DNA of 61,115 bases, counting the filler. It is 6 parts of 6 records of this genome, joined end to end, with 100 filler letters (N's around TTAATTAATTAA, not from the genome) between each part and the next. Parts side by side here need not be neighbours in the genome. Positions count along the whole stretch, not along the records: positions 1 to 20,910 come from SRR15195285_604; 5 more parts are not named here. The stretch is one strand, 5' to 3'. A program made the translations under genes and the position numbers. Position 1 is the first letter of the stretch. The number at the start of each line of letters is the position of its first letter. This document shows positions 1-57,010 of this stretch, piece by piece. The notes under the pieces are model-generated. The model was given only the letters and a program-made list of their open reading frames with translations, did no database searches and had not been told where the DNA came from.

Positions 1-93
1 GGGGGGGGGGGGGGGGGGGGGGGGGGTCGACGGACGCTCTACAGCGACACCTGTTCCCTGCGCAGTGCGCGCGTGGAAAGCACGTGGTGCTCG

Positions 94-3000
94 ATGTCCG
101 AGACGGGCGATGCGCAAGTGAACGCGCCGCGGGGAAACGAAGACGCAGTTGTGGAACTCGTAGCTAGCCTGCGTGCACGGGTGGCGTTTCTGGAGGGACA
201 GGTTCAGACAGGTGCAGCGCCCCCCGACAACCCGCCCGGCGAGTCGGATGCCATTGCTGTGGTGGGAAGTGGATGCCGATTTCCCGGCGCCTCTAGTCCC
301 GATGAGTTTTGGAAATTACTCTGTGAAGGCACAGACGCCATTTCGGAGATTCCGCCCGGTCGGTTTGACGTCGACGAGTATTTTGATACCGACGCTGCAA
401 CTCCAGGTACCATGAACGTGAGGGAAGGCGGATTCCTCTCGCAGCCGCTGGATCATTTCGACACAGCAGCGTTTAGTATAGCGCCGCGCGAAGCAAGGCA
501 TCTTGACCCCCAGCAACGGTAAGCCAGTGCCCCATTCTGACCACGATACCATCTTAACTCTCACGGCGACGTGCCGTTCGGCGCTGTTGCTCTCGTAGGT
601 TGCTTCTGGAGTGTGCGTGGGATGCTCTCGACGACGCCGGCGTTTCTTTTGGTGATCTGCGTGGATCATCAACAGGCGTATTTGTAGGATTGATGAACCA
701 TGATGACTTCATCCGGCAGCATGTGGTCGATGATCAAATTACACCATTCACTAACGCTGGCACTTGTATGTCTATTGCCGCGAATCGAGTCTCGTACCAT
801 TTTGATCTTCAGGGCGTGAGCCTTGCGACCGATACGGCTTGTTCGAGCTCTCTCGTGGCTATGCACCTCGCACGCACAGCGCTGCTCAGTCGAGAAGCTT
901 CTGCAGCGCTGTGTGGTGGCGTCAACGCGTTGCTACTGCCAGGGTTGTTTATTGCGCTCGCCAAACTGCGGATGCTCGCGGCAGACGGTCGATGCAAGAC
1001 ATTTGACGCGTCAGCAAACGGGTATGTGCGGAGTGAAGGCTGCGGTCTGGTAGTGTTGAAGCCACTTTCCGTCGCACGTCAGGCAACAGATCGATGTTAT
1101 GCAATTGTGCGTGGCAGTGCACTGAATTCTGATGGTCGATCGGCGATTCCAATCACGGCCCCGAGCATACAGAGCCAGAAGGCCAATTTGCTCAGCGCGT
1201 ACAAATGTGCCCAGATCGACCCCCAACTGGTGCAGTTTGTGGAAGCGCATGGTACAGGTACACAAAAGGGTGACTTTGCCGAGACAGCTGCGTTGGCTGA
1301 CGTGATGGGCGTTCGTAAACGGCCAGACAACCCGCTGTTCTTGGGGTCAGTGAAAACGAACATCGGCCACGCCGAGTCTGCAAGTGGCGTCGCCGGCTTC
1401 ATCAAAGCGATTCTTTGCCTGCACCACTCGCAGATTCCACAAAACCTTCATTTCCATGTGCCAAACCCAAACATAGATTTCACGGGACTCCGCGTTGTTG
1501 ATTGCCATGTGACCAATTGGCCGCGATGCAAGCACATTAGTCGTGAGTCGATGACCGTTGGAGTGAACTCCTTTGGCTTCGGCGGAACAAACGCACATGT
1601 TGTGGTGCAGGCAGCGCCGGCAGCAGCTCCAACTGCGGAAGACCGGGCTGCTCGGCAATCATCTACTTACTGCTTACCTTTGTCTGCCAGGACTGCAGCT
1701 AGTTTGATGAGATGTGCGGTTAACATGGCCAACTGCCTCGAGTCTCGAGATGTTGCTCCACTAGACGCGTGTTACACGGCCGCGCTGAGGAGGACGCAAC
1801 ACACTCATCGAATGGCAGTGATGGGTGAGACTCGGTTGGAACTGTGCACAGCGTTGAGAGATTACGTATCCAATCCAAATTCCCCGGGTTCAAGCCAGAG
1901 GAAGTGCGTTCGAGGTGTCGCAATCGAAACTACGCCACCACGACTGGCATTCGTGTTTAGTGGACAGGGCTCTCATTGGGCAGGTATGGGTGTCCGTCTT
2001 ATGGACACGTGTAAAGTATTTCAGTCAGAAATGTCTCGCGTTGACAGCTTGCTACAACCTCTGTGTGGATTTTCCATTGTTGACGAACTGCGACGTGGCA
2101 AAGCTGCTAGACTGACACAGCCCAACGTTGTACAACCGGCCATTTTTGCCATTCAGGTGGGTATCCTGGCTGTGTTAGACTCATGGGGCATCGTACCTGC
2201 TGCTGTGATCGGTCATAGTGTCGGTGAAGTTGCAGCCGCTTTCTGTGCTGGTGCTCTGACGTTGTCGCAGGCATGTAAACTGATTGCTGTGAGAAGCAGT
2301 CTCTGTCAGAGGGTTTGTAACTCTGGCGGAATGTTGGCAGCAAAGATTACTGCGGACCGTGCTGAGCAGGAATTGCGCAACGCAGATGCAGCAGGCGCTG
2401 AGATAGCTGCTTTCAACAGCCGAACTTCTGTTACGTACAGCGGCAGCACTGAGGAGATAGGATTGATGGAAACTGCCTTTGAGGCGCGATCCATTCCACA
2501 CAAACGCCTTGATGTTAGTGGGGCGTTTCACAGTCGATCTATGGATCCTATCAGATCGCAGTTGGAGGAACAGCTTCGTGATCTGGTCCCCACGTCTTGT
2601 CGTGTACCATTCCTTTCAACCGTAACAGTGGGCCCACTATCGGGAGAGAAGCTGAATGCAGCGTATTGGTGGAGTAACGTGCGACAGCCAGTTCACTTTC
2701 ACGATACAATCGCAGCAGCACGGAGCTCTGGGTGTGACGGGTTCTGTGAAATCGGGCCACACGGAATCTTGCAGAGATACTTGAAAGAAGAGCTTCCATC
2801 ACCGTGTTGGCACATGGCAACGCTCGTGAAACCAAACGACGACAGTGAAGTTGATCGAAATGACGGACTTGTGCACGTCTTGGCGCAGTTTTTTTGTCGT
2901 GGAGTCCATTGCCGTTGGCAAGGTATGTACCCACATGGGTCTGTCATCAGCTTGCCAACTTACCAGTTTGATCGGCAGCGATGCTATGTGGATTTGGTGC

Positions 3001-6000
3001 TGGCAGCTAGAGCAAAGAGATCAGTTCAGGAGCTCGATACCCAAGGGATGCTCAGCCTAGACGCGAGTGCTATGCATAAACAGACAGTTGTGGTGCAGGC
3101 TGCGCGAACAGGCTGGGTGCATGATCATATCTTGCAGTCCAAAATTGTCTTGCCTGGAACAGCGTACATTGAAATCGCTCTCGCGGCTGCAGACCAATTG
3201 TTTTCTAGCATTGCATCTGATCCACGTAAACCTGCTTTCTGCATAAGCAGTTTGAAATGGGTCTCGCCGCTTTTTCTTGATGCAACCGATGTAGCTTGCA
3301 TTGCTGTTGATGTGCAAAAATCATCATCAGGATCGCAATCGCTCAAGTGGAGTCTCGTAATGAGTGAGGCAAATGCTGCACAGCGTTCGGAGCCACGACA
3401 CCTGGCAAATGCAACACTGGACGCCGCACACTCTATTGAGTGGCCAGATCCTGTTCAAAACTTCCTTGAGCTGCAGAACAAGATGCCGGAGCAATCTGCA
3501 GCCACCGTGGCACTATCATCAGACGAAGTGTATCAACGTTTCGCAAAAATAGGCTTAGATTACACCGGCCTCTTTCGTGGAATCGACGAAATGTGGATCG
3601 ACGTTCAGTCGGGACAGTCGGTCGCCCGAATCTGCGCCGTTGGGTATAATAGCGACTCGTACACGTTTCACCCGGCACTGCTGGATTCAATCTTGCAGTC
3701 AATGTCCGGTGCGCTCGATCTTGGTGCTCCGTTGTTCCCTGTAGAAGTTGAGTCTATTAGACTACGGAGGGCGCTGGATGACCAGGAAATCTGGACGCAC
3801 ACTCAGCTGACACAGTCTCAAGACTCGTACGTAGTTGGGAATATCATTGCGTATGATAGTACCGGGCTTCCAGTGGTAGAGATTACTGGATTCAAGGTGC
3901 AGCTGCTGGACAGTCACGACACCCCCCCAACTGTGGCTTCGTTGATGTATTGCACACGTTGGTATTCGCAACCGTTGCCGGAACTCAGACTCACGGGAAA
4001 CGATCTCGGATGGATTATGTTTTTGCCACGCAATCCGCTCGTACCGCAGCTTGTCCAGGCCCTGCTGCATGAATTGCGCGTACGTGGACTGCTGTGTGGC
4101 ACAATCAGTTTGGGTGAGAAGTTTTCCCACAGCGGTGGCGAGTGGACTGTGAGACCTGATCATGGTGAAGACGTTGCGCAGGCCACATCTGAGTTGGAAG
4201 GTCAATTGCCATTCGTTGGCATCGTGAATTTGCTAGGATTAGAAACGCTTGTCGAACCGCTGCAAAATCCTGGCGCAATGGAACGCATCCAACGGGAGTT
4301 TTGCATGCCGCTGATCCATATGCACCAAAGCTATGCGGTACAATCGAAGAAGCGCGCAATTCTGACAGTAAAGTTTGGTGGACCTAATGCAAGTGAAGGT
4401 GTGAAGATCCTCTCGCTTGCGCAGTCGTTTGTAGATGGGATTGTGCGCACGAGCATGCTAGAGTCGACGAATGTGCTTTGTTACGCGGTTAGTCTTTCGA
4501 AGGGAAATGTGACGGAGGGAGACGCTCTTCTTCGAGAGCTGATGCGTTGTTCAAAGGAACTGCGCGGAGAACATTTGCATGAAAGCTCTTCGGACTTTGA
4601 GGTTGCGCTGGAAGACAACAAACGCATTGTGCCGCGAATAGAGCGTGAAAGTGAGCAGTCTGGTAAACTCCTGACACGTGGCCAACTTGTTGTACCAAAG
4701 CATACCTATGTGCTTGTCGGTGGTCTGGGCGGCCTGGGCATAATGGTTGCCGAATGGTTGCTGAAATTGGGCGCTGATTCTCTGGTGCTCACATCACGAC
4801 GTGGCGGTAGTACAAACGCTCTGGAGACGTTGGATAAGCTTCGCCAGTCATATCTTCACGCACAAATTCTGGTTATGTGCTCCGACGCATCGGACTATTC
4901 TGACCTTGTCAGTATGTTTGACGAGTGTAAAGAGTCGACACCTCCAATCAAGGGCGTCTTTCTCTGTACTATGCAACTTGCTGATGCACACATCGAGGCA
5001 CAGACGTTCAACACCGTTCGCTTGGCCATGGCTGCGAAGATGGATGCTGCTTGGAATTTGCATGCCGCTACCAAAGGTCTACAGCTCGACTTCTTCGTTC
5101 TGTTCTCTAGTGTTAGCGGTTTGATTGGCAATCGAGGTCAAGCAAATTACGCAGCCGGCAACACCTTTCTGGACGCACTGGCCCTTTTTCGCCACCGAGA
5201 AAATCTACCCGCGACCTCAATCAACTGGGGACCTGTCAGCGGCGCCGGGTACTTAGCCAAGGACCAGGATCGACTGCTTGCAAGCTTGAAGAAGCAGGGG
5301 ATGCGCCCTGTATCACTCGAAATGCTTCTGCAAGCTTTATCTCAAGTTGTAGACCAACAGCAGCTGGTGCAAGTGGCTTGCATTGACATAGATTGGTCGA
5401 CGTACTTGCGCAAGAACTACACTGGACGGACAAGAGCGATCATGCCCGCTCGCTTGGCGAGTATTGATCATCTCACAGCTGCGCTTACTCGCCCGCTTAT
5501 TCCGAAATCAAAACCAAACGACCTTGGGTCTGTTGAGGACCAACTCAGCACAATCGCGTCGCACATTTTAGGCATCGATTGCGAGTCGAGTGTGTCCGCT
5601 GACACCTCTCTAGTCAGCTATGGTCTAGATTCGTTGATGTCCAGTGAACTGCAACTCACAATTGAGTCCAACTGGAATGTCGTCATACCAATATCGAACA
5701 TTCTACAAGGCGCATCTATCAATGATCTCAGTAAGCTGATCAGTGATTGCAGCCATCCAAATTCCGTTGCGGGGCACTCAGCAAGCTTGGAGACAGATGA
5801 GGCACCTAGTACGGTGACGATAGACTCTATCGATGATAACTTCGGTCACGGATCGTTTACAATACCCAAGCCAGTGCAACCACCAAGACCAATCACGCGT
5901 GCTAGGAAGTTCGCGAACGTGATACCGTCTCCTAGTGAACTAACGCAACCCTTCGCCATGAATGATCTGCAGTTTGCGTATTATATCGGCCGGTCTGGGG

Positions 6001-9000
6001 CATTTGGCGCTGCTGTACCGTGCCATTTTTACTTTGAGTTCGACCGGGAGCACGACGACGAGTTAGACGTTGTGCAGCTTGAGAACGCATTTAACGTGCT
6101 GATTGCACGCCATGACGTATTGCGGTCGGTCGTTGTGGACGGCATGTTTGTCATCAAGAAGTCGGTTGCCGCCTATCGTTTTGATGTCGTACAGCTAGAA
6201 GAACACAATCATGAAATGTTGGAAAAATTGCGACGAAAGTACAGTCTCGAACAGTTTGATCCAGCACAATGGCCCTTGTTCAGCATTGCGATTACGAAAA
6301 CGCCGCGGTGCTCACGCATTCATGTGAACATTGACCACATTATCCTCGATATCAAGGCGACACTAACACTATTCGCAGAGTGGGCACATTGCTATTACTA
6401 TCCTAGCTCTAGTCTACCACACATTGGCTTCTCATATCGCGATTACAGCATCGCTACTGGGCAATACAAGTCCTCTGAGCATATCAATGGCGCCAGGGCA
6501 TACTGGATGGCTCGTCTAGATCAGCTTCCACCCGCTCCTCCGCTGCCGAAAAGCCCAACCAAGGCTTCGGCCGACGAACGGTCAGTTTTCACTCGACGAA
6601 CTGCACTTTTGAGTTCGGAGCAGTGGACCAAGCTCAAATCGTCTGCTGCACAATACAGTGCAACACCAGCTAGTGTCCTTTGTACCGCGTTTTGCCTTGT
6701 TCTGGCTCGCTGGTCTGCCACGTATAGTTTCACAATCAATGTCCCAGTCTTCAGCAAGTTGCCTGTGCACGATGACGTGGAGTCGGTACTGGGTGACTTC
6801 ACATCGTCAATTTTGTTGCAGTGTGATCTCGAGCTCGGTCATGAATTCAGGCAGTGCGTGCAAAAGGTACAGCACCAAATGTCTTGTGATTTGGATCATG
6901 TTGATTTCTCTGGTGTGGCCGTTTTGCGAGAGCTCTCACGCTTACCAATAGGAAGTGGGCAAGCTGTTAACACGTCAGACACAACTGCGTCCGGCAGCAT
7001 GGCAGGCATGCCTGTTGTTTTCACAAGCATCATCGATTCAAATGCAGGCGACTCTTATGGTTGGCTTGGTCGCAACGTGTACGGTATCAGCGAAACTCCT
7101 CAGGTGGAACTTGATGGGCATGTGTACACAATAGGCGATACATTGGCTGTTAACTTTGATTTTATTGCAGCAAGATACCCACCAGGAATGGTAGATGACA
7201 TGTTCGACTCATACATTCAGTTGCTGATGTCTTTGGCAACCGAAGAGTCGTCTTGGACTACCAAACAGCTGCAGATGCTTCCGCATGCTCAACAAGTAGA
7301 GCGTACAAATGCGAATATGATCCACACAAACGAACCACAGTACGAAATTGCACAGCCACAATCGTTAGTGTATGCAATTCTGCCTGCAATGGAAGCAAGT
7401 AAGTGGGGGTTGGCTGTGGTGTGTGGAACTGTGCAATTTACCTACGCTCAACTCCTCAGCACCGCCGTAGAATTAAGTTTAAGAGCGGAGCTTCGTGAGT
7501 TGCCACCACAGTCGACCGTGGCCATAGTAATGCACAAAGGGTGGGAGCAGATTGTCGCAGTGCTTGCAACCCTGCTGTTGGGTGCTGCGTACGTACCATT
7601 GGACGCAGCTTTGCCGCAGCGCAGGCTGTCTAAACTGCTTGCTCAGTGCAAAGCTAAAGCAGTTTTTGTACAGCAGACTGACGGCAGCAGCTGGTCCGTA
7701 CCGACTATCACTGTGGATACAGTTTGTGAACCAGCAACGTGGACCAGCGGTATGGACTGGATCAGTGTATGTCAAGAACAATTACCTCACTGGTCCAGCG
7801 TTCAGACGCACGATCTCGCATACGTGCTGTTTACCAGCGGGACGACTGGCGTTCCTAAAGGTGTGATGGTCGAACATGGGTCCGTTCTAAACACGGTGGG
7901 CTTCGTGAACACACGGTTCCAAGTCTCTTCTGCCGATGTATTTTTCGGGCTGAGCCAGCTTGGATTTGATCTATCGGTGTACGACATTTTCGGTAGTTGG
8001 GCTGCTGGTGCAACGCTAGTTCTGCCGCTCGAAAATCGGATGAAAGATCCAACGCACTGGATTTCACTTGTCGCTCAACACCGCGTTTCCATTTGGAATT
8101 CTGTGCCTGCTTTGATGGCATGGAAGCTTGACAGCATGGTGTGGCCGGACAAGAAATCAACGGCGTCCGGCGAATTATCCAGCCTAAGGCTGGTTTTACT
8201 ATCCGGTGATCGCATTCCAGCAGCTCTTCCTGTCCGGATTCGTACAGTCTTTAATGGTGCAACTGTGGTGAGCCTCGGAGGACCTACTGAGGATACGATC
8301 TGGGCAATCATATGCGAGGAGGTCGATCAGTTGTCCCCAGGTGGACTGATACCGTACGGTGTCCCTATCAGCGGTATGCACGCACATGTGATAGACACGA
8401 TGGGAAACGACTGCCCAGTGTGGACAGTAGGTGAAATATGTTTCACTGGCGTCGGGGTTGGTCGTGGATACTTCGAAGACCCGGAGCTGACAGCTGCGTC
8501 ATTTTCTGTGCATCCAGCGACGGGCGACAGAATGCACCGAACCGGAGACATTGGCCGATATTTACCTGGAGGCAAAATAGAGATCATAGGTCGAAACGAC
8601 TTTCAGGTAACTTTTCTTTCGTTCATTTTTCTTTCGTTAACTTTCCCTTCACTCATTTTCCTGTCACGTTCAGGTCAAGGTACGGGGTTTTCGGATCGAG
8701 CTAGAAGAGATCGAGACGGTAGCCCAAAGTGTGGATGGAATTCAGGACGTGGCCGTTGTGCCTATACGAGACGACAACACTAACCAGAACTACACTGGAC
8801 TCGTAATGTGTTACACAACGACCCCCGAACCTCCGAAGAAAACCACGATTGTCCGACAATCTGAATCGGAAGCCGTTGCCTTCAAATGTGCCAGACTAGG
8901 AGAGCGGCAGGGGTTGGGGTCTGCCATTGCGTTGACACGCGTTGCATCACTAGAGGCACAGAAGCTTGCCCAGGATCGTCGCACGTGGCGCATGTTTGCA

Positions 9001-12000
9001 TCCTCAGCACTACCGCGGGAGAATTTTGAATCTGACATTGTAGAATCACTTCGTGAGACCTGCGCCAGCAGTTCTGTGGAGATGAAATACTTGCTGTACG
9101 TCCGAGAGGGAGGAATATCAGGTGTCCCATCAGGCTTTTACCAGATCGGCAAGCAGTTTTCACTCAAAGCCGAGAGTACATCGGACACCTTTGAACAGCT
9201 ACCTGCAGACACGGTATTTGGGGAAAACGAGTCGATTTTCCGCACGTCAAGCGGAGCAATTTTCATGTTGCAGTCTGGCACTACATGTACGCCTGCGGCA
9301 CTAATCGAAGCCGGAAGAATTGGTCATCGGCTGATGCAAAGTGTGGCTTCAGAAGATGCTGCAACAGGATTCTGTCCGATTGGCGCGATCAATTCATCAG
9401 CTTTGTATGGGTGGTTGGCATCTGGTAACAAGTCCAGCACGGTTGTCCACACTATGTGCTTTGGGCCTGTCTTAGGCTCTGTTGGTAATTCTACGCCCAC
9501 GCACATGAAGCAGACGCGCGAACAGCAGTTGCGTGCTCGTCTTACGTCCGAGCTTCCGCAGTACATGGTTCCACGTTCATATTTCGAAGTAGATGCGATG
9601 CCACTTTCAAAGAACGGCAAAGTTGACCGCCGTGCACTCGAAATCTTGTACCACTCAGACAATAGAGAGCGACTTGCACATAATTCAGTCCAAGCTTCCT
9701 GTGGTGACTCATCTAGTGGTGATGTGAATGTATCGCCGGCAGAAACTGAGCTACTGGTCATCTGGAAGAATCGACTTAAAGGCGCAACGAACATCAACAC
9801 TAAAGATGACTTTCTGGCGTTGGGTGGAGACTCTCTTGTTGCTTTGCAAATGATCGTAGATGCTCGTGCTAAAGGATTGCAGTTCTCTGTAACAGATCTT
9901 TTTGCAGCACGTACCATTCAAAATATGGCACGGCTGGCAGCAGGGCAGCAGTATAATGCTGAAAGTGCTCAAAATTCCCGTGACAAGGCAATGGAAACAA
10001 AGGACATGTCGAGATTGCCACAGCTACTCGAGGATCCAGCGAAACGCCACGAGCCGTTTGGTTTGACGCCAGTTCAGCAGGCCTATTGGGTGGGCCGGCA
10101 TGAAGAGATGAACCTCGGCAATACATCAACGCATGGATATCTAGAGTGGAAAGTGACTAGTTTCAAGCTCGAGCGACTCCAGTCTGCTCTGGTGTCCCTC
10201 GTTGAAAGACACGAGATGCTGAGAGCCATCGTACGGCAAGATGGGTTGCAGCAAGTGTTGCCTGTGAGTCACAAGACCTACCCTGCTGTAAATGTGATCG
10301 ACTTGACTAAGCATCCTGAACAAGAAGCGGAGATGCGTCGAGTCCAGATACGCAACCGCCTGTCTCACGAGATCTTCGACCCGTCAAAATGGCCGCTGTT
10401 CTCGGTTTCTGCGATATCTGTCAGTGAGGTTGACTGTTATGTCGGCTTCAGCTACGATATGCTCGTGTTTGACGTGCGCAGCATCTTTATGTTTGTTGAT
10501 CAGCTGTTTTTGATCTACCATGGGCGAGAGCACGTATACACCAAGCCGAAAATCAGTTTTCGAGACTACACAGAAGCGCTTGAGCGCTGGAAATATGAGT
10601 CTAGCGACTATCACAACAGCATACAGTTCTGGCGGCAAACATTTGTGGAGCACCGTCCACGTGGTCCAGACTTACCGCTGGCATCAAGACCCGAAGACAT
10701 CGAGCAACCTCGGTTTCTACGCCAAGAATTGCGGTTCTCTGCAGCCGTGTGGTCAAGCTTTAGCGAAAGCGCCACCGAAAACGGACTGACCCCGTCGGCC
10801 GTTTTACTTTCTCTGTTCGGACTGGTCTTGCGACAATGGTGCAGTGACGAAAATCGTCCCTTCTGCATCAATGTGCCTGTGTCATCGAGGCTACCCCTTC
10901 ACGTGGACGTCGACCGCCTCATTGGAGACTTTACCACGACAATCTTCATCACTTTCCAAGGCAGCAGCACTTGCTTTCTTGAACAAGCTCGGGCTACTGC
11001 TGAGCAACTAATGGAGCGCATCGAGCATCGCCACGTATCTGGCGTAGAAGTTCTCCGGAGTCTGTCAACAGGCGATCCCTCTATCATGTCTGAGATGGCG
11101 GTACCTGTTGTTTTTACCTCTGCGTTGGACATAAGTGTTGAGGCTCATTCTGATATAGAATTTTCCTACGGTGTCTCACAGACGTCACAAGTCTGGCTTG
11201 ACTGCCAGGTATACACAGAGAATGATACCCTCATCATGAACTGGGATTATGTATCCGGCCTGTTTGCACCAGGACTAGTCGACACGATGGCTACATTGTT
11301 CTACGCAAGCGTAGGCAGATTGTCGGCCAGCTCATCATGGGACACGTTGAAGATTACAAGTGGTGTTGACATGCCAGATGGTGGTGACGACCTAGCGGCT
11401 GCAAACAATCATCAGCTTCTGCACTCAGCGTTTGTACAACACGCCTGTTCTCATGGCGAGCGTCCAGCTGTAGTTTCTGCAGAAACCGGAAGGATATTTT
11501 CTTACCGCCAGCTGCTTGATCAGGCAGTAGTGGTCCATAACTGGGTAGCACAGCACGTCTCCCACAAGGCGGAGCAAACCCGGCTTGTTGCTGTGGTAAC
11601 AAACAAAGGCTGGGAAGAGGTCGTTGCCGTTCTTGGTGTGCTATGTACCGGAGCTGCGTACATACCGATTTCGGCATCGCTTCCTCCAAATCGAATCAGG
11701 CAGCTTCTCGATTTGTGTGAAGCATCGTGTGTTTTAACGCACTCCGCAATTAAATCCTATCTGGGATTCTTGGATGCAATTGCTCCGACTCTGTGTGTTG
11801 ACGCCATCGATTACCCTGGCACCTCGACAAAAGCACATGACCAAATCATCGTATCTGGCGACGGAGGTTCTTTGGCTTACGTCATATTTACCAGTGGGTC
11901 CACCGGTGTGCCGAAAGGAGTAATGATTCAGCACTGTGCTGCACTAAATACAATTGACGAAATCAACCGCCGATTTGAGGTAGGTTCGGCTGACAGAGTT

Positions 12001-15000
12001 CTCGGGGTATCGTCGCTCAGCTTTGATTTGTCGGTTTGGGATATATTTGGAATTCTCAGTGTGGGTGGATGCCTCGTCATCCCATCAGCTGACTCTGTCA
12101 GAGATCCAGCACAATGGGTTGAGTGCATTCGAGCTCATGGCGTAACGATTTGGAACTCCGTACCACAGCTATTGAGCATGCTCGTTGAGCACGTTGGTGA
12201 CGCACGCGACGTAGCAGTCAACGGGCTATCATCGATGCGGCTGGCTCTTCTTAGCGGTGACTGGATCCCTGTTGGACTACCAACTGCATTCCGTGCAGTG
12301 ACATCTGATGCAACCAGTGTGATTTCTCTCGGTGGAGCCACTGAGGCCTCGATATGGTCGGTGATATTTCCGATTGATGAGGTGAAGCCAGAATGGGTTA
12401 GTATCCCTTATGGTAAAGCTCTGGCAAACCAGCGCATCTACTGCCTGAATGCAAATTTCGAGGTAACTTTGCCTTGGGTTCGTGGAGAACTATACCTCGC
12501 TGGGGTTGGCTTAGCCGTTGGCTACTGGAAAGCACCCGACCTAACAGCCACGCAATTCATTCTGCATCCAGAAACGGGCGAACGCCTCTACAGAACAGGC
12601 GACATGGGACGGCTCACAGACACAGGCGATATTGAATTTCTCGGGCGCGTTGACTCGCAAGTCAAGCTGTCGGGATATCGCGTCGAGCTTGGCGAGGTAG
12701 AAGTTGTTCTACAGAGCCACCCTCAGGTACAACATGCAGTTCCATTGGTGGTGGACATATCTTCGTCTCGGGCCTTGGTGGCCGCGGTTGTGCCTACTGG
12801 TTCTGTGGATGACACTTTTAACACACAGTTGTGCAACTTCGTCAAATCAAGGCTCCCTGATTACATGGTTCCTCGTGCGATCGTTACGATGGACTCTCTG
12901 CCACTCACCAAGAATGGCAAGGTCGATGGCAAGCAGCTTCACGTGCGGATGCACCATGCTATCGAAATGTCACCGGAGCAAGACTTACATGTTTCTCCAG
13001 GGCATGATGTGAAGCATCTCGCTGTATCTTTGGCCTTGGATCCTATTGTATCGAACATTGTGTCGATCTGGCAAGACGTCTTGAAAATTCCAGTGGAACC
13101 AAATTCCGATTTTTTTGTAGATCTTGAAGGGGCGTCTGCTGTGGCTATACAGCTCATCAACACTGTGAATGCTTGTCTGAACACGAAGATGGCTGTCGCC
13201 AAACTCTTCAGCCACCCAACTCCATTGCTCCAGGCCGAGCTCGTCAGGCAGGGAGGAGGTTGCGAATCAATCACACCCATCGTCGACCTTGCACCAAGTT
13301 CAACGGCTTCGCACCGTGTGTACTGTATACATCCTGCTGGGGGCAGTAGCATTTGCTATGCACGAGCTGCTCGAGCACTAGAAAATGATCTGCATCTGTT
13401 TGGTGTCGACGATCTGCATTCGGTGGCACAGCTTTCACAATCTGTTGACGGTTCAGCCGAAGATGTTGCATCACAGGAGGATGACATAGATTTGCATGCA
13501 GATGTGGAGAAAGAATTGTCCATCAAAGAACTGGCAAGACGCTACGCGCAGTTCATTGTCGAGCATGCCAAAGGGGAAGAGTTTGCTCTGGTTGGGTTCA
13601 GTTTCGGTGGGATCATTGCATGGGAGGTGGCATCACATTTAAATGAAGCTAGCAAGGTGGTCGGTATCAGCCTCATCGACACAGATGCTCAGGGCGAAAC
13701 GACAATGACCGACGAGGCAATTTTGGGCAATATCGTAGAGCATTATCGGCGCTCAACAGGGCAGAACGTTGAAACGCTCAATATGCCTTCAAATGCCACT
13801 CAGAATCAGGATGAGTTGTGCCAATTAGTTGCTGATCATATGGAAGAAGCAGGACTGTATCCACAAGGGATTGGGTTTAGCGCGCTGAAGCGGTTCTTAG
13901 CTCTATTTCGTCGGCACATCAGGATGATTGACGCCTACACATTCCCGAGCACGCTAGGAAGACGAGTTCCGGCAATATTTGTGTCGGGTTTAGATTCTAG
14001 CCGACAACAACGGGAGTTCTGGAATGGCCTCTGTACACATTCAGGAGGTTTACTGCACGCTGCTGTACCTGGTCATCACGATGAAATGCTGTCTGAGCTC
14101 CACTCAAGCACAACTGTTGGGTCTTGCGCACAATTCTTCCAGGGCAACCCTCTGCAGTTGACACAGTTGCAAGATGGCAAGAAAGCCCATCTCAAACAAG
14201 TGGTTGTAGAATGTCTCCAAGTTGATATCGATCCTCAACAGCTCTCCGAGGGTACAGACCTGTGGACACTCGGTGCCAACTCAGTATTCTACGTGAAGCT
14301 GCAGCGTCGTCTCAAGAAGGATCTAGGAGTAGATGTACGATTACCTGCTCTACTTGCGGCCCCACGACTGAGTGACTTGAGTGCAATTGTCATGCCACAT
14401 GTTGACACCCACGAAAGCAAACCTGGGGAAGCTGCTCAAAACCCCTCGTGCACGCCATTGCGTGAAGACTATTCGAATCCAGCTGAAGCAGCAGCAGGTC
14501 ACAGCTCCGTTGCAATTATTGGGATGTCTTGCCGGCTCCCAGGAGAAGCGAATTCACCCGAAGAATTCTGGAATAATTTAATCAATTCTGTCGATTGCAT
14601 CAGTAGATTCTCATCAAACAAGTCTGCAGATTCGAATTGGATAGGTGCCAGTGGCTTAGTTCACGGAACCTGGATGGACTGCTTTGACTGTGAACTATTC
14701 CAGATGACACGAAAGGAATCGTCAATATTGGATCCACAACACAGGCTGTTTCTAGAGCTGGTTTGGGAAGCATTAGAACAGTCTGGGATCCGTGAGCGTG
14801 AGAAAGCTGTTGGAGTTTGGTCTAGTTTTGCTCCTAACACCTACCTACAGGCGTTGTTGAAGCAACACGCGGTAGCTGAGCCAACCGGCACAGCAGATAT
14901 GCTGCAGTTACTTCTCGGTAATGAGCGCGACTACGCATCTGCACGACTTTCGTACCTATTGGATTTACGTGGGCCTAGCATGAACGTCCAGACTGCGTGT

Positions 15001-18000
15001 TCTAGCAGCTTGGTTGCGATGCATCTGGCGCGCGAAAGCCTCAACCGTGGAGATTGTGCTGCTGCGGTTGTTGGTGCCGTATCTCTTGCCTTTCCGATGC
15101 GACGAGGCTACACATGGGAACAGGGGGGGATTTTTTCACAGCGTGGTCGATGTGCCGCGTTCGATGTCTCTGCTGATGGTACGGTCCCAGGATTTGGTGG
15201 TGCAAGCGTGATAATGCAACCAATCGGAACTATAGATGCGCAATCCAACCACTATGCTGTGCGTGCTGTGCTGCGTGGCGGTGCAGTGAATCACGATGGT
15301 CGCCGGAAACCTGGCTTCACGGCACCCTCAATGCAGGCTCAATTTGAAGTGCTGCGCGCGGCGTTCATCTCTGCCGAACGAAGCCCGTCCACTCTTGGCA
15401 TGATTGAAGCTCATGGAACCGGTACTGTACTCGGGGACCCGATTGAAGGCACAGCACTTTTGCAGTTGCTTGCATCCGCAACGGATGCTCGTGCGTCGAA
15501 TATGCCTGTAGCCCTGGGCTCTGTAAAAAGCAACATCGGGCATCTCGATGCTGCTGCAGGGCTTGCTGGAGTTGTCAAGGTCGTGTTGGCATTGGAACAT
15601 TCCAAAATACCGCCCACACTTCATGTCTCGCAACCAAATCCTGCGATTCCATGGGGCTCACACCTGGCACCTGTGACGCAGGCCCAAGAATGGCCTGGCC
15701 TCCAGTCAACTGCTGGCGTAAGTTCGTTTGGCATGAGCGGCACCAATGCACATATCGTACTACAGCAGCCGCAGAAGAGTGTCTTGGATGATGCGACACA
15801 AGCTCCAGAGGCTGTTGGCCAGCCTTCCCTACTGACGTTGTCTGCAGCATCAGAAAGGTCGCTTCAAAGTTCCGTCGAGAACTTGCGCAGCTGGGCCAAA
15901 GATCACCCAGATTGCACACTTGCAAACGTAGCGTTGACATTGCACCGTCGCCATGAACACCGGCTCGGTTACCAGGCAACTGCCGTGGCACACTCTAACG
16001 TTCGCGCGATATCCAGCACCGACTTCATCGTGCACCAGTCGGGTGATGTAGACGTGGTGTTTCTGATTCCCGGCCAAGGGGTTCAGTCGCTGGAGCATGT
16101 TGCATCTATGTACTCGTACCACGCAGGCTTTCGCTTGCAAGTCCAAGAATGCTGTGATCTACTGTGTGCACAGGACGAGTGGCAAGCTGTTGGCACTTCT
16201 GTACTACGCGCTATTGCGAGTGGGCGCAGTATTAGTCTCACTGGCCAGGCTGAGCAGCAGGCCTGCGTCTTTGTGGTCAACTACGCAATGTCACAGGTCT
16301 GGATACAGACTGGAGTGACTCCGAGGTGCGTTTGCGGGCACTCTCTGGGTGACCTTGTTGCGTGCTGTATATCCGGCGCTGTAGAACTTAAGGATATGCT
16401 TCGACTAGTTGCCAAACGCGGGCAGCTAGTCGACTCGCTCGCAAGGACTGATGGGGGCATGTTAGCGGTGCGATGTACTGAGGACGTCTTGTGCGCTGAG
16501 CTTACAGAAGCCCGCTGCAGCGGCAAACTTGTGCTGGCAGCAGTCAACCAACAGAACCAGCTCGTTGTGGCAGGGCTGGGTGAGGACGTTGCTCGATTTG
16601 AGTCTCATATGAAAAACCGTGGGATTGCAGCACACCGACTTCCAGTGCAGCATGCGTTTCACACCCTGGCAATGGAGGCAGCATCAAGAGAGCTCAAGCA
16701 GCTTTTCGCGAACATCAACGAACAACCACAGGAGGCTAAGAGCGATGGTGTTGTGCACATATCGACGGTTACAGGTCAGCGACTCCAGGAACAACCGACA
16801 GCGGAATATTTCGCGCAGCAGCTCGTGCTCCCAGTCCAGTTCTGTGCTGCTGTTGAATCGGCAATATGCCACGGACCAAGCTCTGTGGAAGGTGCAGGTG
16901 CCACCACACACCGAGTACTGCTAGAAGTAGGGCCGTCAACTACGTTGACATCGATTGTGGCGGGTTTGGGGACAGGCCTATCATCATTCCCTCACCACAG
17001 CCGTTCGCAAATGGATGGATATTCTCACTGGCTACACACTTGTGGCATTTTGTGGAGCCTTGGTGTGCCGGTGCAGCTTCCTGGACTTACATCCCCTGAT
17101 GAGGCTACTAAATATTTGTCAGGATTGCCGCCGTATGTGTTCGACCGCGAGCAGCTCACAGCTCCGAGCCAGCGAGCAATTGGCGAAAGTGGTTCGAACC
17201 CCAAGAAAGTTGACTCAACTGAAAACACCAAGGAGATGCTGAACAAACTTTTTCAGGACACGTTGGCGTGCAGTAGTCCTGTCGATGTCAACAGCAACTT
17301 TTTTACCCTTCGAGGCTCATCATTGGATGTCGTGCAACTTCTCAACGGAGTTAGGAGCACGCTCGGGGTGACTATCACCATGTCTCAGTTTTTGCAACAG
17401 CCGACAGTGCAGGGGCTTTACGATCTTGTGTCGAGTGGTGACCACACGCAGTCCAGCGACGATTCAAAACCCGTCAGTGGTACGGACACTACCCACAAGT
17501 TTGAATCATGGCACCCACTCAGCTTCAGTCAGGAGGCGATATATGCGATCGAACACATATATCCACGAAATGATGGTGTGTACAACCTTCCGTCTGCCTT
17601 CATTTTTCCAGTAGGGACGCTGACACAGGCACAGCTTTCTGACCATCTGGCTCGTCTGGTCGCTAAACACGATTCCCTGCGCGCTACATTTCGTTCCAAC
17701 AGTTCTGCAACGTCGACTAAGTACACACCATGTATGTCAGTCGCTGACACGTATGTAGTTGAAGTTGAACAAATCTCTATTCATCGAAACAGTCCTGGCG
17801 ACGAGAGTGACGACCAAGAAGCATTAGACAGGGAACTGCGGCGCTTCACCAACAAGCCCTTCGACCTGCGAGCAGGCCCTCTAATCCGAGCAGGTGTTGT
17901 ATCGCAAGTGGTCCTATCGAAAGTGGGTGCGGAAGTGACAGTGGCAGTTGTAGTGCTTCATCACCTTGTCTGTGATGGATTATCAGCTGGTGTTCTGCTG

Positions 18001-19002
18001 GGCAATCTAGCGCTAGACACGATTGATGCTGGCAAGGCTTTAGATCTTCCCGAACAGAGCTATGTGGAATTTGTGAAATGGGAGCGTCGATGGATTGAGA
18101 CGCGTGCAGCTGAGATCGCCTTGGAATACTGGCGGGGTGAACTAGCGAGGCTGCTATACAAGGAAAATGCGATGGTTTTATCTTTGCAGTCAACGATACC
18201 AGCTGACCCAGACCGTGCCAACAGAGCTGATGCATCCCAGCGCAGACTAGCCATCGGCAGAGAACGGAGCTTCGGTGGTGGTTCTGTGGCGATCACATTG
18301 AGCAAGGACACGGTGCAAAACCTCAGAAAAGTTGCAAGTCAGTTCGGTGTTACGTTGACAGTAGTTTTGATGGGGCTATACGCTTGCTCTTTGTGGAAAT
18401 GTGCAGCTCGTAGCAACAATCCAAAACTGATCCCCATAGGCGTGCCCGTGGCGAATCGACCCCATGGATTCCAGCGGTTGGTGGGTTGCTGCATGAACAT
18501 GGTGGTTCTCTGTTGTGATGTGAAGCCCGATGAGCTGCTGACCAAGTTCCTAATTAACATTCAGCAAAAGGTAGCCGCTGCGGTGGATCATTCCTATCCA
18601 TTCACCGAGTTGGTACGAAAACTCGCGCCACCCCGGGCAAGGGGTTACAATCCACTATATCAAGCGGTGTTCAACGTTCGACCCGCCGAACAGCGTCACC
18701 CAGCCACTACTAGCCCGCTGTTGGGTCCGCAGGTGCCTTACAGATTCGATTCTGATCGATCACAGAATGACATTGGCCTCCACTTAGTGGAACCAGCACA
18801 GCAAGAGTCTTCCACGGGGGCTGACGATGACTGCTGTAGCGGATATCTCGAGTACAATGACCAGATTCTCGATCGGTCAGAAGCGACTGATCTCGCCCGA
18901 TCGTTCATTCGCTTAACAAATTACGTAGCTACTAGAAGTGCTGCCGACGAGGGATCGATGGCCACAATATTGTCGACGCTTGATGGTGCTTTCGGATCCT
19001 GA
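94..19002 (+). CDS. Hybrid type I PKS-NRPS megasynthetase, 3 exons (94-518, 599-8606, 8674-19002), ~6,253 aa: KS-AT-DH-KR-ACP-Cy-A[Ox]-PCP-Cy-A-PCP-TE-ACP-KS-AT-ACP-C
   Basis: Removing GT-AG introns 519-598 and 8607-8673 restores the conserved motifs DPQQR|LLLE (KS) and GRNDFQ|VKVRGFRIEL (A8) in frame. Motifs seen: KS1 DTACSSS/HGTGT/GHAE; AT1 GHSVG/GAFHS; DH HDHILQSKIVLP and HPALLD; KR GGLGGLG/NYAAGN; ACP GLDSL; Cy1 DHIILD; A1 TSGTTGVPKG; PCP GGDSL; Cy2 DMLVFD; A2 TSGSTGVPKG; TE HPAGG/GFSFG/GHHDEM; KS2 QTACSSS/HGTGT/GHLD; AT2 GHSLG/HAFH; C HHLVCDG. Confidence 0.93.
519..598 (+). other. Spliceosomal intron 1 of the PKS-NRPS (80 bp, phase 2)
   Basis: GTAAGC donor and TCGTAG acceptor; splicing gives CG+G = Arg in DPQQRLLLE. 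Confidence 0.93.
8607..8673 (+). other. Spliceosomal intron 2 of the PKS-NRPS (67 bp, phase 0)
   Basis: GTAACT donor, T-rich body, TTCAG acceptor; joins ORF 600.. to the frame of ORF 8731.. and restores the A8 motif. Confidence 0.93.
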
Positions 19003-19188
19003 CGCAAGTAGTTGAGTCATGACTGTGCATTTGGTCTAAACTTGTGCAAAATGCAGCCAGTGCCTCAGCATCTCTAGAGTTGGCCTTTGGTACGAATGTA
19101 TCGCATGCCTGTCAAGTGCCGTCTATATTCCCAGCACTTGACACAGACATACACCCACGCGCAAGCGGGGACAACGTTTCTGACTGCC

Positions 19189-20819
19189 TCACGCTGAACC
19201 TCCCACTAGGCAATGCAGCAGACGATGTGTGTCCGAAAGGCGGAAGCTATTCCGCAGCTCTGGACTAACACATGAATTCACAGCTTCGTCTGGCAACGAG
19301 CACTCTTGTAAAGATATACGCTGCTTTGCTGCAGTATCCATCAGAAGTTCGGTGATGTAACCTGCTTCGAGCATCATGAAGCTGAAGCTGTGCTCGCCGT
19401 ACAGAGGCTCAATAGCCGCGAGATCACCGATCAGAAAGAGATAGAATGCGCAAGCGTCATCACCTGTCGCACCAGCACACCCATCACAAGGTGCGCCCTG
19501 CATTTCCTCTTGCAACAGGTGCAGGGAGTGCGTTGATGGTTTGTAGCTGCGCATTCATATCCACAGCTGTCAGTGCCAATCACAGCGCACACAGAAGGGT
19601 ACAGACACACGTGGGTGACACTCACTAGTAGCATCCGCCGCTGAGACCTTCGATCGCGCCTTGGCGAATAGAAAAGTATACCTGTACGGGGTACAGACTG
19701 CCTGCGGATGCATAGCGATACTTCGGGAGCACATTGCCTTCGATATCGATACACATCAAGGCGTCACAGATGCCTGTAATCTGCTGGGTGGCAATAATGC
19801 TCGATGTTGCCCCTGGGTTGCCTTCGCGTGTGTCACGCACATTCGTCGTCGCACGGCTGGAGTTGCTCACAGCTTCCCATTCATGGCCCGTAGTGTCGAG
19901 GTACTGCTGCTTCAACGTTTGAAGATCACGAACAGACTCCGCGACAGTCTTTACGTCAGCTTTCCTGTCGCAGAAACCAGCAGGATCAGGAGAAGCACGA
20001 CAACCAGGTCACCAAATAATGCCCACAAGATCGGACGCACTCGAGTTTCTTGCTGCGAATGTCTGCCATCTTTGCAGCGATCGCTGCTGCAAGTTTGGTG
20101 GCATGGAGAATATCATCCTCGGATTCGTGGCTCTGCGTCTTGTGTGTTGCGGTGTACAGCGTGTAGCCGACAGCCCAACATGTACTTAGCTGCAGCAACG
20201 TGTCCACTGATGCTTCGGTGACCAGTCGCTGAATGTAGCGCTGCAATTCGTTGCCACGCGCAGCGATTCGCCCATCGGCGCCAGGCAACCATGGAAGAAT
20301 GATACCTTTGCCGGGAAATGGCAAATGCGGAGAATAGCTGGTCAACGATTGGCTCGCAAGAAGCTGGTCGTGTCGCCTGCGCAACTCGCTGTAACGCTCA
20401 GAGAACTGAACTGCGCCCGTAGATCTGCTTGCCACAGTAAACTTGTACTTGATGTGAGAATCTGCCTCAACGCCGGCTATCGTGTGCCCAGTGTACGTCA
20501 CGCTGAAACCTTCGTTGCTTGCAGCACCGTATGGACATTTGCACGGAACAGAGCTTGCTTTCGCTTCGCAGAGTTCTGAGCCAGGGACGCTCGCGACGAG
20601 ACCTGGTAGATGACGTTGCACCCGTTTGATGTGCCCTGGTAGAAATCCGAACTCTTTTGCCAGCTCCTCGGGCGTCAGGTCACAGAAGAGAACAAAATCG
20701 TACCCCTGACCGACAAGAGCCTTGGCATACATTTCCACCTGCGCAGCCGGCTTGATCCCCAAATGCTCCGCCAATAGGGTCTTGAAAAATTCGACGGTGC
20801 CGTCTTCATGCTCGAACAT
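19189..20819 (-). CDS. SAM-like + PX domain + SagB/ThcOx-type (NRPS Ox-like, nitroreductase fold) oxidase fusion; exons 20819-20041, 19964-19626, 19546-19189; ~491 aa
   Basis: Introns 20040-19965 (GTGCGT..GACAG) and 19625-19547 (GTGAGT..CTGAC..GCGCAG) join three ORFs in frame. Ox motifs: KYRYASAGSLYPVQVY, GGCYYYKPSTHSL (formed across the splice) and IEPLYG..MLEAGY. PX motifs: ERYSELRRRHDQL, LPFPGK, RGNELQRYIQRL. The N-terminal YAKALVGQGYD..DLTPEELAKEFG..GHIKR segment is SAM-like. The start lies near the contig end, so it is uncertain. Confidence 0.8.
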
Positions 20820-20910
20820 CCTGTCTTTGTTTCGCGTGGCGCTTTGGTGGCTAGCGCACGCTTGTCTCTTATCTCGCGCCCGCTCTCCCCCCTCCTCGCT
20901 GGAGTCACGC

Positions 20911-21010
20911 NNNNNNNNNNNNNNNNNNNNNNNNNNNNNNNNNNNNNNNNNNNNTTAATTAATTAANNNNNNNNNNNNNNNNNNNNNNNNNNNNNNNNNN
21001 NNNNNNNNNN
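20911..21010. other. Artificial contig linker (N44-TTAATTAATTAA-N44)
   Basis: Identical 100-bp spacer with six-frame stops; occurs five times in the window. Confidence 0.97.
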
Positions 21011-26457: not shown

Positions 26458-26557
26458 NNNNNNNNNNNNNNNNNNNNNNNNNNNNNNNNNNNNNNNNNNN
26501 NTTAATTAATTAANNNNNNNNNNNNNNNNNNNNNNNNNNNNNNNNNNNNNNNNNNNN
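26458..26557. other. Artificial contig linker
   Basis: N44-TTAATTAATTAA-N44. Confidence 0.97.
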
Positions 26558-33892: not shown

Positions 33893-33992
33893 NNNNNNNN
33901 NNNNNNNNNNNNNNNNNNNNNNNNNNNNNNNNNNNNTTAATTAATTAANNNNNNNNNNNNNNNNNNNNNNNNNNNNNNNNNNNNNNNNNNNN
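33893..33992. other. Artificial contig linker
   Basis: N44-TTAATTAATTAA-N44. Confidence 0.97.
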
Positions 33993-34262
33993 TCGCCGTA
34001 CGCCTCGCCGTACGCCTCGCCGCACACCTCGCCGCAAGCGGCTGCAGCAGCTGAGGCGCAAAGACGCGGTGGAGGCTGGGATCGCGCGCACGCCTCGCCG
34101 CACACCTCGCCGCATGTATCGCCCGCGGCTGCAGCATCTGTAGCGCGAGGGAGACGTGGCGGAGGATGGGGTCGCACGTCAGCAGATGCGTACGTGTCGC
34201 CGCATGTGTCGCCCGCGGCTGCATCCGAGGCGCAAGGATGTGGTGGAGGATGGGATCGCACG
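33993..34262 (+). repeat. Three degenerate ~85-95 bp coding tandem repeats (SPHxSPAAA...GGGWxR) with internal 12-bp SPxx units
   Basis: Repeated TCGCCG(T/C)AC units and GGAGG(C/A)TGGG..CGC blocks, in frame with ORF 34194. Confidence 0.75.
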
Positions 34263-43480: not shown

Positions 43481-43580
43481 NNNNNNNNNNNNNNNNNNNN
43501 NNNNNNNNNNNNNNNNNNNNNNNNTTAATTAATTAANNNNNNNNNNNNNNNNNNNNNNNNNNNNNNNNNNNNNNNNNNNN
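43481..43580. other. Artificial contig linker
   Basis: N44-TTAATTAATTAA-N44. Confidence 0.97.
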
Positions 43581-56910: not shown

Positions 56911-57010
56911 NNNNNNNNNNNNNNNNNNNNNNNNNNNNNNNNNNNNNNNNNNNNTTAATTAATTAANNNNNNNNNNNNNNNNNNNNNNNNNNNNNNNNNN
57001 NNNNNNNNNN
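56911..57010. other. Artificial contig linker
   Basis: N44-TTAATTAATTAA-N44. Confidence 0.97.

Follow-up and report, generated by a model that had tools for sequence, protein, structure and literature searches.

An internal thioesterase between two carrier domains of an intron-containing hybrid PKS-NRPS megasynthase gene

The window analysed here (that is, the whole stretch of 61,115 nucleotides (nt), filler included) consists of six separate contigs joined end to end, the first of which (SRR15195285_604; positions 1-20910) carries on its plus strand a gene for a hybrid of a polyketide synthase (PKS) with a nonribosomal peptide synthetase (NRPS), a megasynthase in which a thioesterase (TE) lies in mid-protein between two carrier domains. 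The contig begins with a run of 26 G (positions 1-26), probably a sequencing or assembly end artefact, so the 5' end of the gene may be cut off; the true gene start could nevertheless be the ATG at 94, after which come a short helical lead and the first ketosynthase (KS1). Two GT-AG introns (519-598 and 8607-8673) join the long, uninterrupted exon 8674-19002 to an upstream KS-AT-DH-KR-ACP-Cy-A part. The upstream frame 600..8783 runs out inside an adenylation (A) domain, amid nonsense residues, and retention of the second intron (67 nt, GTAACT...GTTCAG, pyrimidine-rich) shifts the frame and leads to a stop at 8783, whereas its removal joins DFQ to VKVRGFRIELEEIE and restores the adenylation core (DFQ-VKVRGFRIE). 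Removal of the first intron (80 nt, GTAAGC...TCGTAG) likewise joins DPQQ-R to LLLE and restores a conserved KS motif (DPQQR-LLLE). The spliced coding sequence (1-518 + 599-8606 + 8674-19002) comprises 18855 nt, that is, 6284 codons plus stop with an open 5' end, and thus predicts a protein of at least 6284 amino acids (aa), and the spliceosomal introns indicate that the host is a eukaryote. This intron-containing, eukaryotic gene, twice as long as the feature described, had escaped the original prediction, which was made from the letters of the window.

The whole domain order by Pfam is KS-AT-DH-KR-ACP-Cy-A(insert)-PCP-Cy-A-PCP-TE-CP-KS-AT-CP-C, all on the plus strand. Exon 1 (1..518, 5' end open) holds the possible start and the N-terminal part of KS1 (ketoacyl-synt, residues 83-173), and exon 2 (599..8606) runs from the rest of KS1 through an acyltransferase (AT1, about 1947-2879), a dehydratase (DH, 3072-3929), a ketoreductase (KR, 4677-5279), an acyl carrier protein (ACP1, 5517-5759) and a heterocyclisation domain (Cy1, 5997-7304; DHIILD by translation) into the N-terminal part of the first adenylation domain (A1, 7407-8606). 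In the third exon, the frame 8731..19002 is open for 3423 codons (stop-to-stop, the reading is open from 8641), and residue numbers below refer to it. The C-terminal part of A1 (8674..9640; adenylation-domain C-terminal matches at residues 259-390) is followed by a peptidyl carrier protein (PCP1, 9748..10005), the heterocyclisation module Cy2-A2 (10048..12930; DMLVFD from 10456), PCP2 (13003..13245; Ser codon from 13135), the TE (13258..14142), a further carrier between TE and KS2 (CP3, 14143..14400; Ser codon from 14281), KS2 (14488..15780; Cys at 14998 in TACSSS, His motifs EAHGTGT and NIGHLD), AT2 (16048..17010; GHSLGD and HAFH), CP4 (17218..17445; PCP-like) and a condensation (C) domain (17503..19002; HHLVCDG at 17959-17979), which ends with the stop codon at 19000-19002. 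Pfam places AMP-binding at residues 903-1266 of this frame (adenylation domain 903-1397), ketoacyl-synt at 1926-2162, Ketoacyl-synt_C at 2179-2299, Acyl_transf_1 at 2443-2732 and Condensation at 2929-3412, together with four PP-binding stretches. The central claim of the original prediction, a TE in mid-protein with no stop behind it and then ACP-KS-AT-ACP-C, is therefore borne out by both the Pfam order and the open frame, and the motifs that it listed lie as it described (HPAGG from 13330, GFSFG 13594, LID within SLIDTD 13669, GHHDEM 14071, LGANSV 14269, LRGSSL 17308 and HHLVCDG 17959), GFSFG and HHLVCDG at the very positions that it gave. TACSSS starts at 14992, GHSLGD at 16336 and HAFH at 16651.

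Both 'C' domains of the NRPS part are of the heterocyclisation type, with DxxxxD instead of HHxxxDG. The best solved relatives of Cy2-A2 are 6lta (FmoA3; E 3.1e-165), BmdB (2.3e-158) and PchE (5.4e-133), and the Cy domains of EpoB and HMWP2 are also among its solved relatives. HAFH in an AT is a malonyl-CoA signature, as is also stated in a passage of PMC7159223. Between the core motifs of A1 lies an insert of about 240 aa (8791-9510) that has no match in Pfam at E 10, among PDB sequences, in the protein atlas or by local phmmer, and its single-sequence AlphaFold2 model (mean predicted local distance difference test (pLDDT) 34.7) is unusable. In thiazole-forming modules, tailoring domains such as oxidases occupy a position of this kind; given the lack of a family, structure, atlas or local match, we have not adopted an oxidase as the identity of the insert.

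The internal TE matches PF00975 at 40.8 bits (cut-off 26.4; E 3.7e-10), with Ser1624 (13600-13602), Asp1650 (13678-13680) and His1783 (14077-14079) as its catalytic residues. In an alignment of 44 sequences (the TE of the window and 43 relatives), columns G119, S121 and G123 are invariant, and H31, P32, G35, D147, G278 and H280 reach a conservation of 90% or more; every one of these residues is present in the TE of the window. The AlphaFold2 model (pLDDT 84.7; predicted template modelling score (pTM) 0.87) has an alpha/beta-hydrolase fold with a helical lid (helices at 158-232), and its top Foldseek matches in the PDB are thioesterase domains at probability 1.00, namely the AB3403 TE (E 2.3e-12, TMq 0.68) and the oocydin branching TE 7r0x (E 4.5e-11, TMq 0.64), with further matches to the NocB, Pks13 and Vlm2 TEs. 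The intact look that the original prediction had ascribed to this domain is thus upheld by a triad in conserved columns and a confident model. A fragment that is 37% identical to the TE (P0123) keeps VGFSFGG and LID, which argues for selection on the catalytic residues, and taken together with the conserved triad columns this suggests that the TE looks functional. Inserted after its third strand is an acidic loop of about 28 residues (approximately 13405-13510), where model confidence is lower. We considered and rejected the possibility that this loop is a hidden in-frame intron, as it has neither a GTAAG/GTAAC-like donor nor a pyrimidine tract and the loop is simply much shorter in P0123.

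As to what kind of TE this is, PCP2 ends about five residues before the TE segment, which therefore follows its carrier directly, as a type I TE does, although it does not lie at the C-terminal end of the synthase as type I TEs do. A scan of 1.84 billion representative proteins returned 1746 matches at E <= 0.001, with the window's own protein alone below 1e-30. We annotated the 149 best non-self matches by phmmer with the window's own domains as queries, a procedure of low sensitivity for carriers that cannot recognize domain types which the window lacks: 79 of the TEs come after an NRPS A or C domain, 25 after a carrier only and 2 after PKS domains, 38 stand as TE only (fragments and stand-alone proteins not being separable here) and 4 are tandem TEs, whereas non-TE domains come after the TE in a single case (P0218). 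As these relatives mostly end NRPS modules, the TE appears to be an NRPS-type terminator by descent whose internal placement is rare. It does not have the character of a type II (editing) TE, given that it lies in cis and that its relatives mostly follow NRPS modules or carriers. Among solved structures its best sequence matches are likewise in-line TEs (Pks13, 3.5e-6; AB3403; NocB), with RedJ, a type II TE, at E 0.8. An editing role is consequently the least supported of the alternatives that the original prediction had offered, the relatives being chain-ending TEs and the match to RedJ weak.

Each of the four carriers of this exon, scanned alone, exceeds the PP-binding cut-off of 20.8 bits (PCP1 42.9, PCP2 40.2, CP3 26.8 and CP4 45.1). 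Three of them have an off-consensus core (LEGASA at 13123-13140 in PCP2, LGANSV at 14269-14286 in CP3 and LRGSSL at 17308-17325 in CP4), and PCP1 has the usual LGGDSL. CP3 and PCP2 are 15% identical, so CP3 is not a recent copy of PCP2, and the idea of a tandem duplicate was dropped. The best local relatives of CP3 are two carriers of KR-ACP-KS context and then PCPs, all low-scoring, which leaves its ACP-like or PCP-like character ambiguous; for CP4, 32 of the 40 best local relatives lie after A domains. Neither Pfam nor phmmer with the window's own domains reveals an enzyme on the contig for loading CP3.

Misassembly and splicing between the TE and the next module, both of which the original prediction had raised against itself, were sought in the sequence, and neither was seen. 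Positions 1-19002 contain no N, 1-19500 hold no DNA repeat beyond chance matches of 21-27 nt, and the composition shows no break over 12.5-15 kb. KS1 and KS2 share 36% identity; in view of this divergence and the absence of repeats, a misjoining through repeats is unlikely. An intron scan (donor-like GT sites, then a pyrimidine-rich tract and YAG), which recovered both real introns, gave no GT..AG candidate between 12572 and 14791. A gap of about 10 residues separates the TE from CP3, and one of about 40 separates CP3 from KS2. Behind the TE, the same exon continues in frame for 1619 residues (CP3-KS2-AT2-CP4-C), and because no in-frame stop intervenes, an upstream product could end there only by way of additional processing.

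The protein ends with a C domain that has HHxxxDG and no later A-PCP, as in an off-loading C design. Full-sensitivity phmmer with the gene's 16 domains as queries against all 45 six-frame pieces of 19003-20910 returned only noise (<=2.7 bits among the matches listed), and the longest plus-strand frame after 19002 is 200 aa; the earlier statement that neither A nor PCP follows the C domain therefore stands for the rest of the contig. P0272, a 171-aa fragment with 70% identity, shares the C-terminal end point; with this and the intact catalytic motifs of KS2, AT2, CP4 and C, the downstream module looks functional and the C domain is really terminal. Its best solved relatives are 8z0q (2.5e-30), Txo1 and TycC. 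It is very divergent (<=31% identity). In a C-domain tree of 72 rows it has a branch of 1.7, joins the Cy outgroup and does not group with the terminal C domains of bacterial loci, and no cluster is formed by the three terminal C domains; given this branch length and long-branch attraction, the tree is uninformative.

Which kind of carrier feeds KS2 bears directly on whether the chain passes the TE. Among 277 labelled KS domains (67 post-NRPS and 210 post-PKS), the ten best BLAST matches of KS2 and 17 of its best 20 are post-NRPS, in a ranking biased by the choice of the bacterial loci through similarity to a KS2-to-C query, whereas eight of the ten best matches of KS1 are post-PKS. In a FastTree phylogeny of 215 rows, taken from 308 KS of the fetched proteins (all 11 post-NRPS, all 83 N-terminal, a random 120 of 194 post-PKS and the window's two, with 19 of unclear context dropped), KS2 belongs to a clade of ten (99% support) together with four KS that come directly after A-PCP, four N-terminal KS and one post-PKS KS. 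A quick IQ-TREE run of 91 rows has a 100% split between 44 rows (36 post-PKS, 7 post-NRPS and KS1) and the rest, and KS2 (branch 1.03) sits at this split. On balance we lean towards the view that KS2 resembles KS domains fed by NRPS carriers, which favours a chain that continues beyond the TE. We dropped the idea of a 'circularly permuted' line, with KS1 fed by the C domain at the C-terminus, because KS1 groups with PKS-fed KS domains.

Bacterial counterparts were sought by an alignment-based scan of one genome per bacterial species, which gave 80 loci with 112 KS. The nearest upstream catalytic domain of these KS is A in 52 cases, C in 3, KR in 31, AT in 6, DH in 1, KS in 1 and none in 18, and in no case a TE; a TE occurs once in the 80 loci, in terminal position. 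At 40 PKS-to-C junctions, the C domain is followed by A in 27 cases and by another C in 8, and one is cut by the end of the locus; the remaining four have nothing within 3 kb downstream (L001, L009, L012 and L040). Three lines end in A-PCP-KS-AT-(ACP)-C: L040 (4161-13739) is a single open reading frame (ORF), C-A-PCP-KS-AT-C with HHAVCDG, L001 (5856-13933) encodes its C domain in a 430-aa gene of its own immediately behind the PKS, and in L009 (5208-16171) the C domain is also a separate small gene after the PKS. The existence in bacteria of this KS-AT-CP-C termination design directly after A-PCP, and the NRPS-fed appearance of KS2, are points that the original prediction had missed.

No protein with the PCP-TE-CP-KS junction was found in our searches, which included a scan of genome contigs. 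A word-indexed search with residues 1440-1960 gave 390 matches, the best non-self one being 29% identical over 55% of the query, and in all five matches examined the TE stands at the protein end. Among proteins of 913-2605 aa, 17 match the 521-aa query stretch and none has the junction, and a protein-atlas query with PCP2-TE-CP3-KS2 returned PP-KS clusters alone, all scoring below 0.9. A literature search on domain-order strings gave no relevant report of a TE-carrier-KS or PCP-TE-ACP order.

Given that every active site is kept on both sides of the TE, we suggest that both halves are probably in use, and we tentatively favour, at a probability of roughly 45%, a single collinear line with two exits, in which the terminal C domain performs the final release and the TE serves either as a side exit or as a hand-over station between PCP2 and CP3. 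An acyl starter from outside the contig would be extended once and reduced to an enoyl unit, two residues would be added and heterocyclised by the Cy modules, and the chain would thus reach PCP2. Most of the flux would then pass the TE into KS2, where the chain would gain one malonyl unit to stand on CP4, and the terminal C domain would release it onto a nucleophile encoded off this contig, as may happen in bacterial lines that end in A-PCP-KS-AT-ACP-C. As a side exit, the TE might release a short heterocyclic acid or clear stalled carriers; as a hand-over catalyst, it might form an acyl-O-Ser intermediate and pass the chain to CP3. Several observations weigh against this scenario. The TE's relatives are chain terminators (79 of 149 after NRPS modules, 1 of 149 with later non-TE domains), an active TE beside PCP2 should compete strongly with KS2, the side-exit role leaves CP3 unexplained, and for a TE handing its chain to a carrier thiol we found no precedent in the literature. 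The nearest local relatives of the C domain are ordinary elongation C domains with an A domain after them, the contig offers no acceptor module for it in 19003-20910, and the PCP-TE-CP-KS junction has no second instance in the searches described above. The bias of the BLAST ranking counts here too, as does the IQ-TREE run, in which KS2 plus the 44 mostly post-PKS rows stand apart from the other 46 rows with 89% support.

In its boldest form, which explains CP3 best, this single-line scenario would make the TE an obligatory in-line transacylase that moves the chain from PCP2 to Ser1624 and from there to the thiol of CP3, or else to an amine or hydroxyl group on a CP3-bound building block; in the latter variant CP3 might have been charged by an A domain of the same line. 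This proposal accounts for the retention of the triad, of CP3 and of an NRPS-fed-like KS2, and Cong-TE, Ela-TE and OocS TEB offer partial precedents in passages of PMC12979598; we regard it as rather unlikely all the same. The main rival, while still unlikely in our view, is that two independent lines were fused, such that the TE ends the first (yielding a heterocyclic acid) and CP3-KS2-AT2-CP4-C forms a short line by itself. Genes of bacterial ancestry that lay side by side may have been joined in the eukaryote, with CP3 primed in trans and the C domain coupling what the short line makes to an amine or alcohol, perhaps to the line 1 product. Such a history is in keeping with the TE's kinship to terminators, with a CP3 that is no copy of PCP2 (15%) and that aligns, together with KS2, with the N-terminal ACP-KS of Pks13, and with two separate proteins that resemble the halves: P0196 (KS-AT-DH-ER-KR-ACP-C-A-PCP-TE, with a terminal TE) is collinear up to residue 1821, and P0353 (KS-AT-ACP-C, with a terminal C) aligns with residues 1927-3392 at 30% identity. 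The internal TE of P0218 also looks like an end-to-start fusion (A-PCP-TE-A-PCP-C). However, P0196 and P0353 are generic hybrid synthases only 25-35% identical to the window protein, the linker of about 10 residues between TE and CP3 holds no intergenic or docking-element remnant, no enzyme that would load CP3 is seen on the contig, and KS2, whose closest resemblance is to KS domains supplied by NRPS carriers, fits an upstream NRPS better than a simple acyl primer.

Two further explanations would take the TE, or the junction itself, out of the chemistry. The TE could be an evolutionary relic, structural or weakly active, in a line that runs PCP2 to KS2 to C. It is divergent (at 40.8 bits against PF00975, its best stretch covers profile positions 46-105 of 226), it carries the acidic loop of lower model confidence, and bacterial A-PCP-KS-AT-ACP-C lines do without a TE, the sole one in the 80 loci being terminal; yet all conserved catalytic and oxyanion columns are retained, the fold is predicted with confidence (pLDDT 84.7) and P0123, at 37% identity, retains the nucleophile and Asp motifs, which makes a relic improbable. 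Least probable of all, we think, is an artefact of continuity, that is, a chimeric contig or separate proteins that arise through an internal start, processing or a splice invisible in the DNA. The contig is a short-read-style draft piece with 26 G at its start and a linker behind 20910, and no second genome with the same junction appeared in the searches run; against this, the 12.5-15 kb region is free of N, repeats and composition breaks, KS1 and KS2 are only 36% identical, 12572-14791 holds no intron candidate, no in-frame stop follows the TE, and the domains adjoin one another tightly without loss of frame.

In textbooks, PKS and NRPS lines end with a thioesterase, and the few internal ones on record for the most part lack an explanation, or else proved to catalyse acyl transfer. 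The present layout (carrier, TE, carrier and KS in one exon, with all active sites intact) is a clean one in which to ask whether a type-I TE is a branch point or a carrier-to-carrier relay. If either is true, it would provide a new type of junction for engineering hybrid lines, and if the TE is a transacylase, a type-I TE would replace the condensation or hand-over catalyst between NRPS and PKS modules in a eukaryotic megasynthase. A hybrid synthase of at least 6284 aa with Cy domains of thiazoline/oxazoline type and spliceosomal introns would join a short eukaryotic list, and it may illustrate how multi-gene pathways of bacterial type become single fused genes in eukaryotic genomes.

The sole other gene on the megasynthase contig is a minus-strand frame (19986-20910) that runs into the contig end, with a weak PX match (E 0.0015) that at 19.5 bits falls short of the 21.6-bit cut-off and a SAM-like stretch recognized by eye. 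The contigs are joined by five linkers (20911-21010, 26458-26557, 33893-33992, 43481-43580 and 56911-57010), six-frame-stop blocks of 100 nt that each consist of 44 N, TTAATTAATTAA and 44 N, and as these link separate contigs, gene neighbourhood across them is not real adjacency. The long frames on the other contigs have eukaryote-type domain sets and are not genomic context for the megasynthase; they include a GH123 and F5/8 type C domain frame (21330-25559, minus strand), a frame with cyclic-nucleotide-binding domain and EF hands (29975-32866, minus), a frame of 2944 aa that contains C-type lectin and laminin-G-like domains (34194-43028, plus) and an ion channel with EF hands (50159-52708, plus).

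Among known systems, the upstream half recalls the Cy-A-PCP-TE termination modules of pyochelin PchF and yersiniabactin HMWP1, in that its Cy-A is strongly similar to the solved FmoA3, BmdB and PchE and its PCP is followed by a type-I TE with an intact triad; unlike in those modules, the TE is not at the protein end and about 1600 residues follow. Pks13 of mycolic acid synthesis (ACP-KS-AT-ACP-TE), whose TE acts as an acyltransferase onto trehalose, provides the best TE match both among solved structures (E 3.5e-6) and in NCBIfam, and the ACP-KS stretch at the N-terminus of the Pks13 model aligns with CP3-KS2. In the window, by contrast, the TE comes before and not after the ACP-KS-AT-ACP block, and the protein does not belong to the Pks13 family (42.6 and 422.7 bits against a family cut-off of 2100). 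P0218 (2338 aa; A-PCP-TE-A-PCP-C-formyltransferase) has a TE that is 28% identical to that of the window and that likewise lies after a PCP with non-TE domains following, but it precedes an A domain able to load the next carrier, whereas the TE of the window precedes a bare carrier and a KS.

TE-fold domains inside a line, with more domains after them, are already a known kind. Passages of PMC12979598 describe the internal OocS TEB of oocydin, which performs acyl transfer and is non-hydrolytic, and the in-line Cong-TE and Ela-TE, which transfer acyl groups to carrier-bound acceptors; the portion of PMC6113372 on AlpA2 (alpiniamide) and the burkholderic acid PKS leaves the function of their internal TEs unassigned, and parts of PMC5707447 and PMC7159223 give C-T-TE-TE-A-T for FmoA5 and TE-A-PP-KS-AT-TE-KR-PP for a dinoflagellate burA-like protein. 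The structure of OocS TEB (7r0x) is the second-best fold match of our model, but no better than ordinary terminal TEs. Several of these internal TEs, as far as those passages describe them, are type II-like or are embedded in PKS modules, whether flanked by AT and KR or in modules of the trans-AT type, whereas the TE of the window is NRPS type-I-like and sits after a PCP and before a carrier and a whole PKS module. The exact layout (a type-I TE of the NRPS kind between two carriers, then a PKS module that looks NRPS-fed and an off-loading C, in a spliced eukaryotic gene) was not found in the systems and databases covered here. The downstream half has its closest parallel in the bacterial A-PCP-KS-AT-ACP-C lines (L040, L001 and L009), where a block of KS, AT, carrier and C, there fed by an NRPS module, also ends the line, with HHxxxDG in L040 and L001. 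Another possible model is SalA, with the order ACP-KS-AT-AT-ACP-C. In jamaicamide JamP/JamQ, JamQ is, like the C protein of L001, a separate C domain after a PKS, and a passage of PMC2799420 describes it as a putative condensation domain for pyrrolinone cyclisation. The window differs from these bacterial lines in having a TE and an extra carrier between PCP2 and KS2, a TE preceding none of the 112 KS. As A-PCP-KS-AT-ACP-C is already a termination design in its own right, the novelty of the present gene lies in the TE and carrier that are wedged between PCP and KS.

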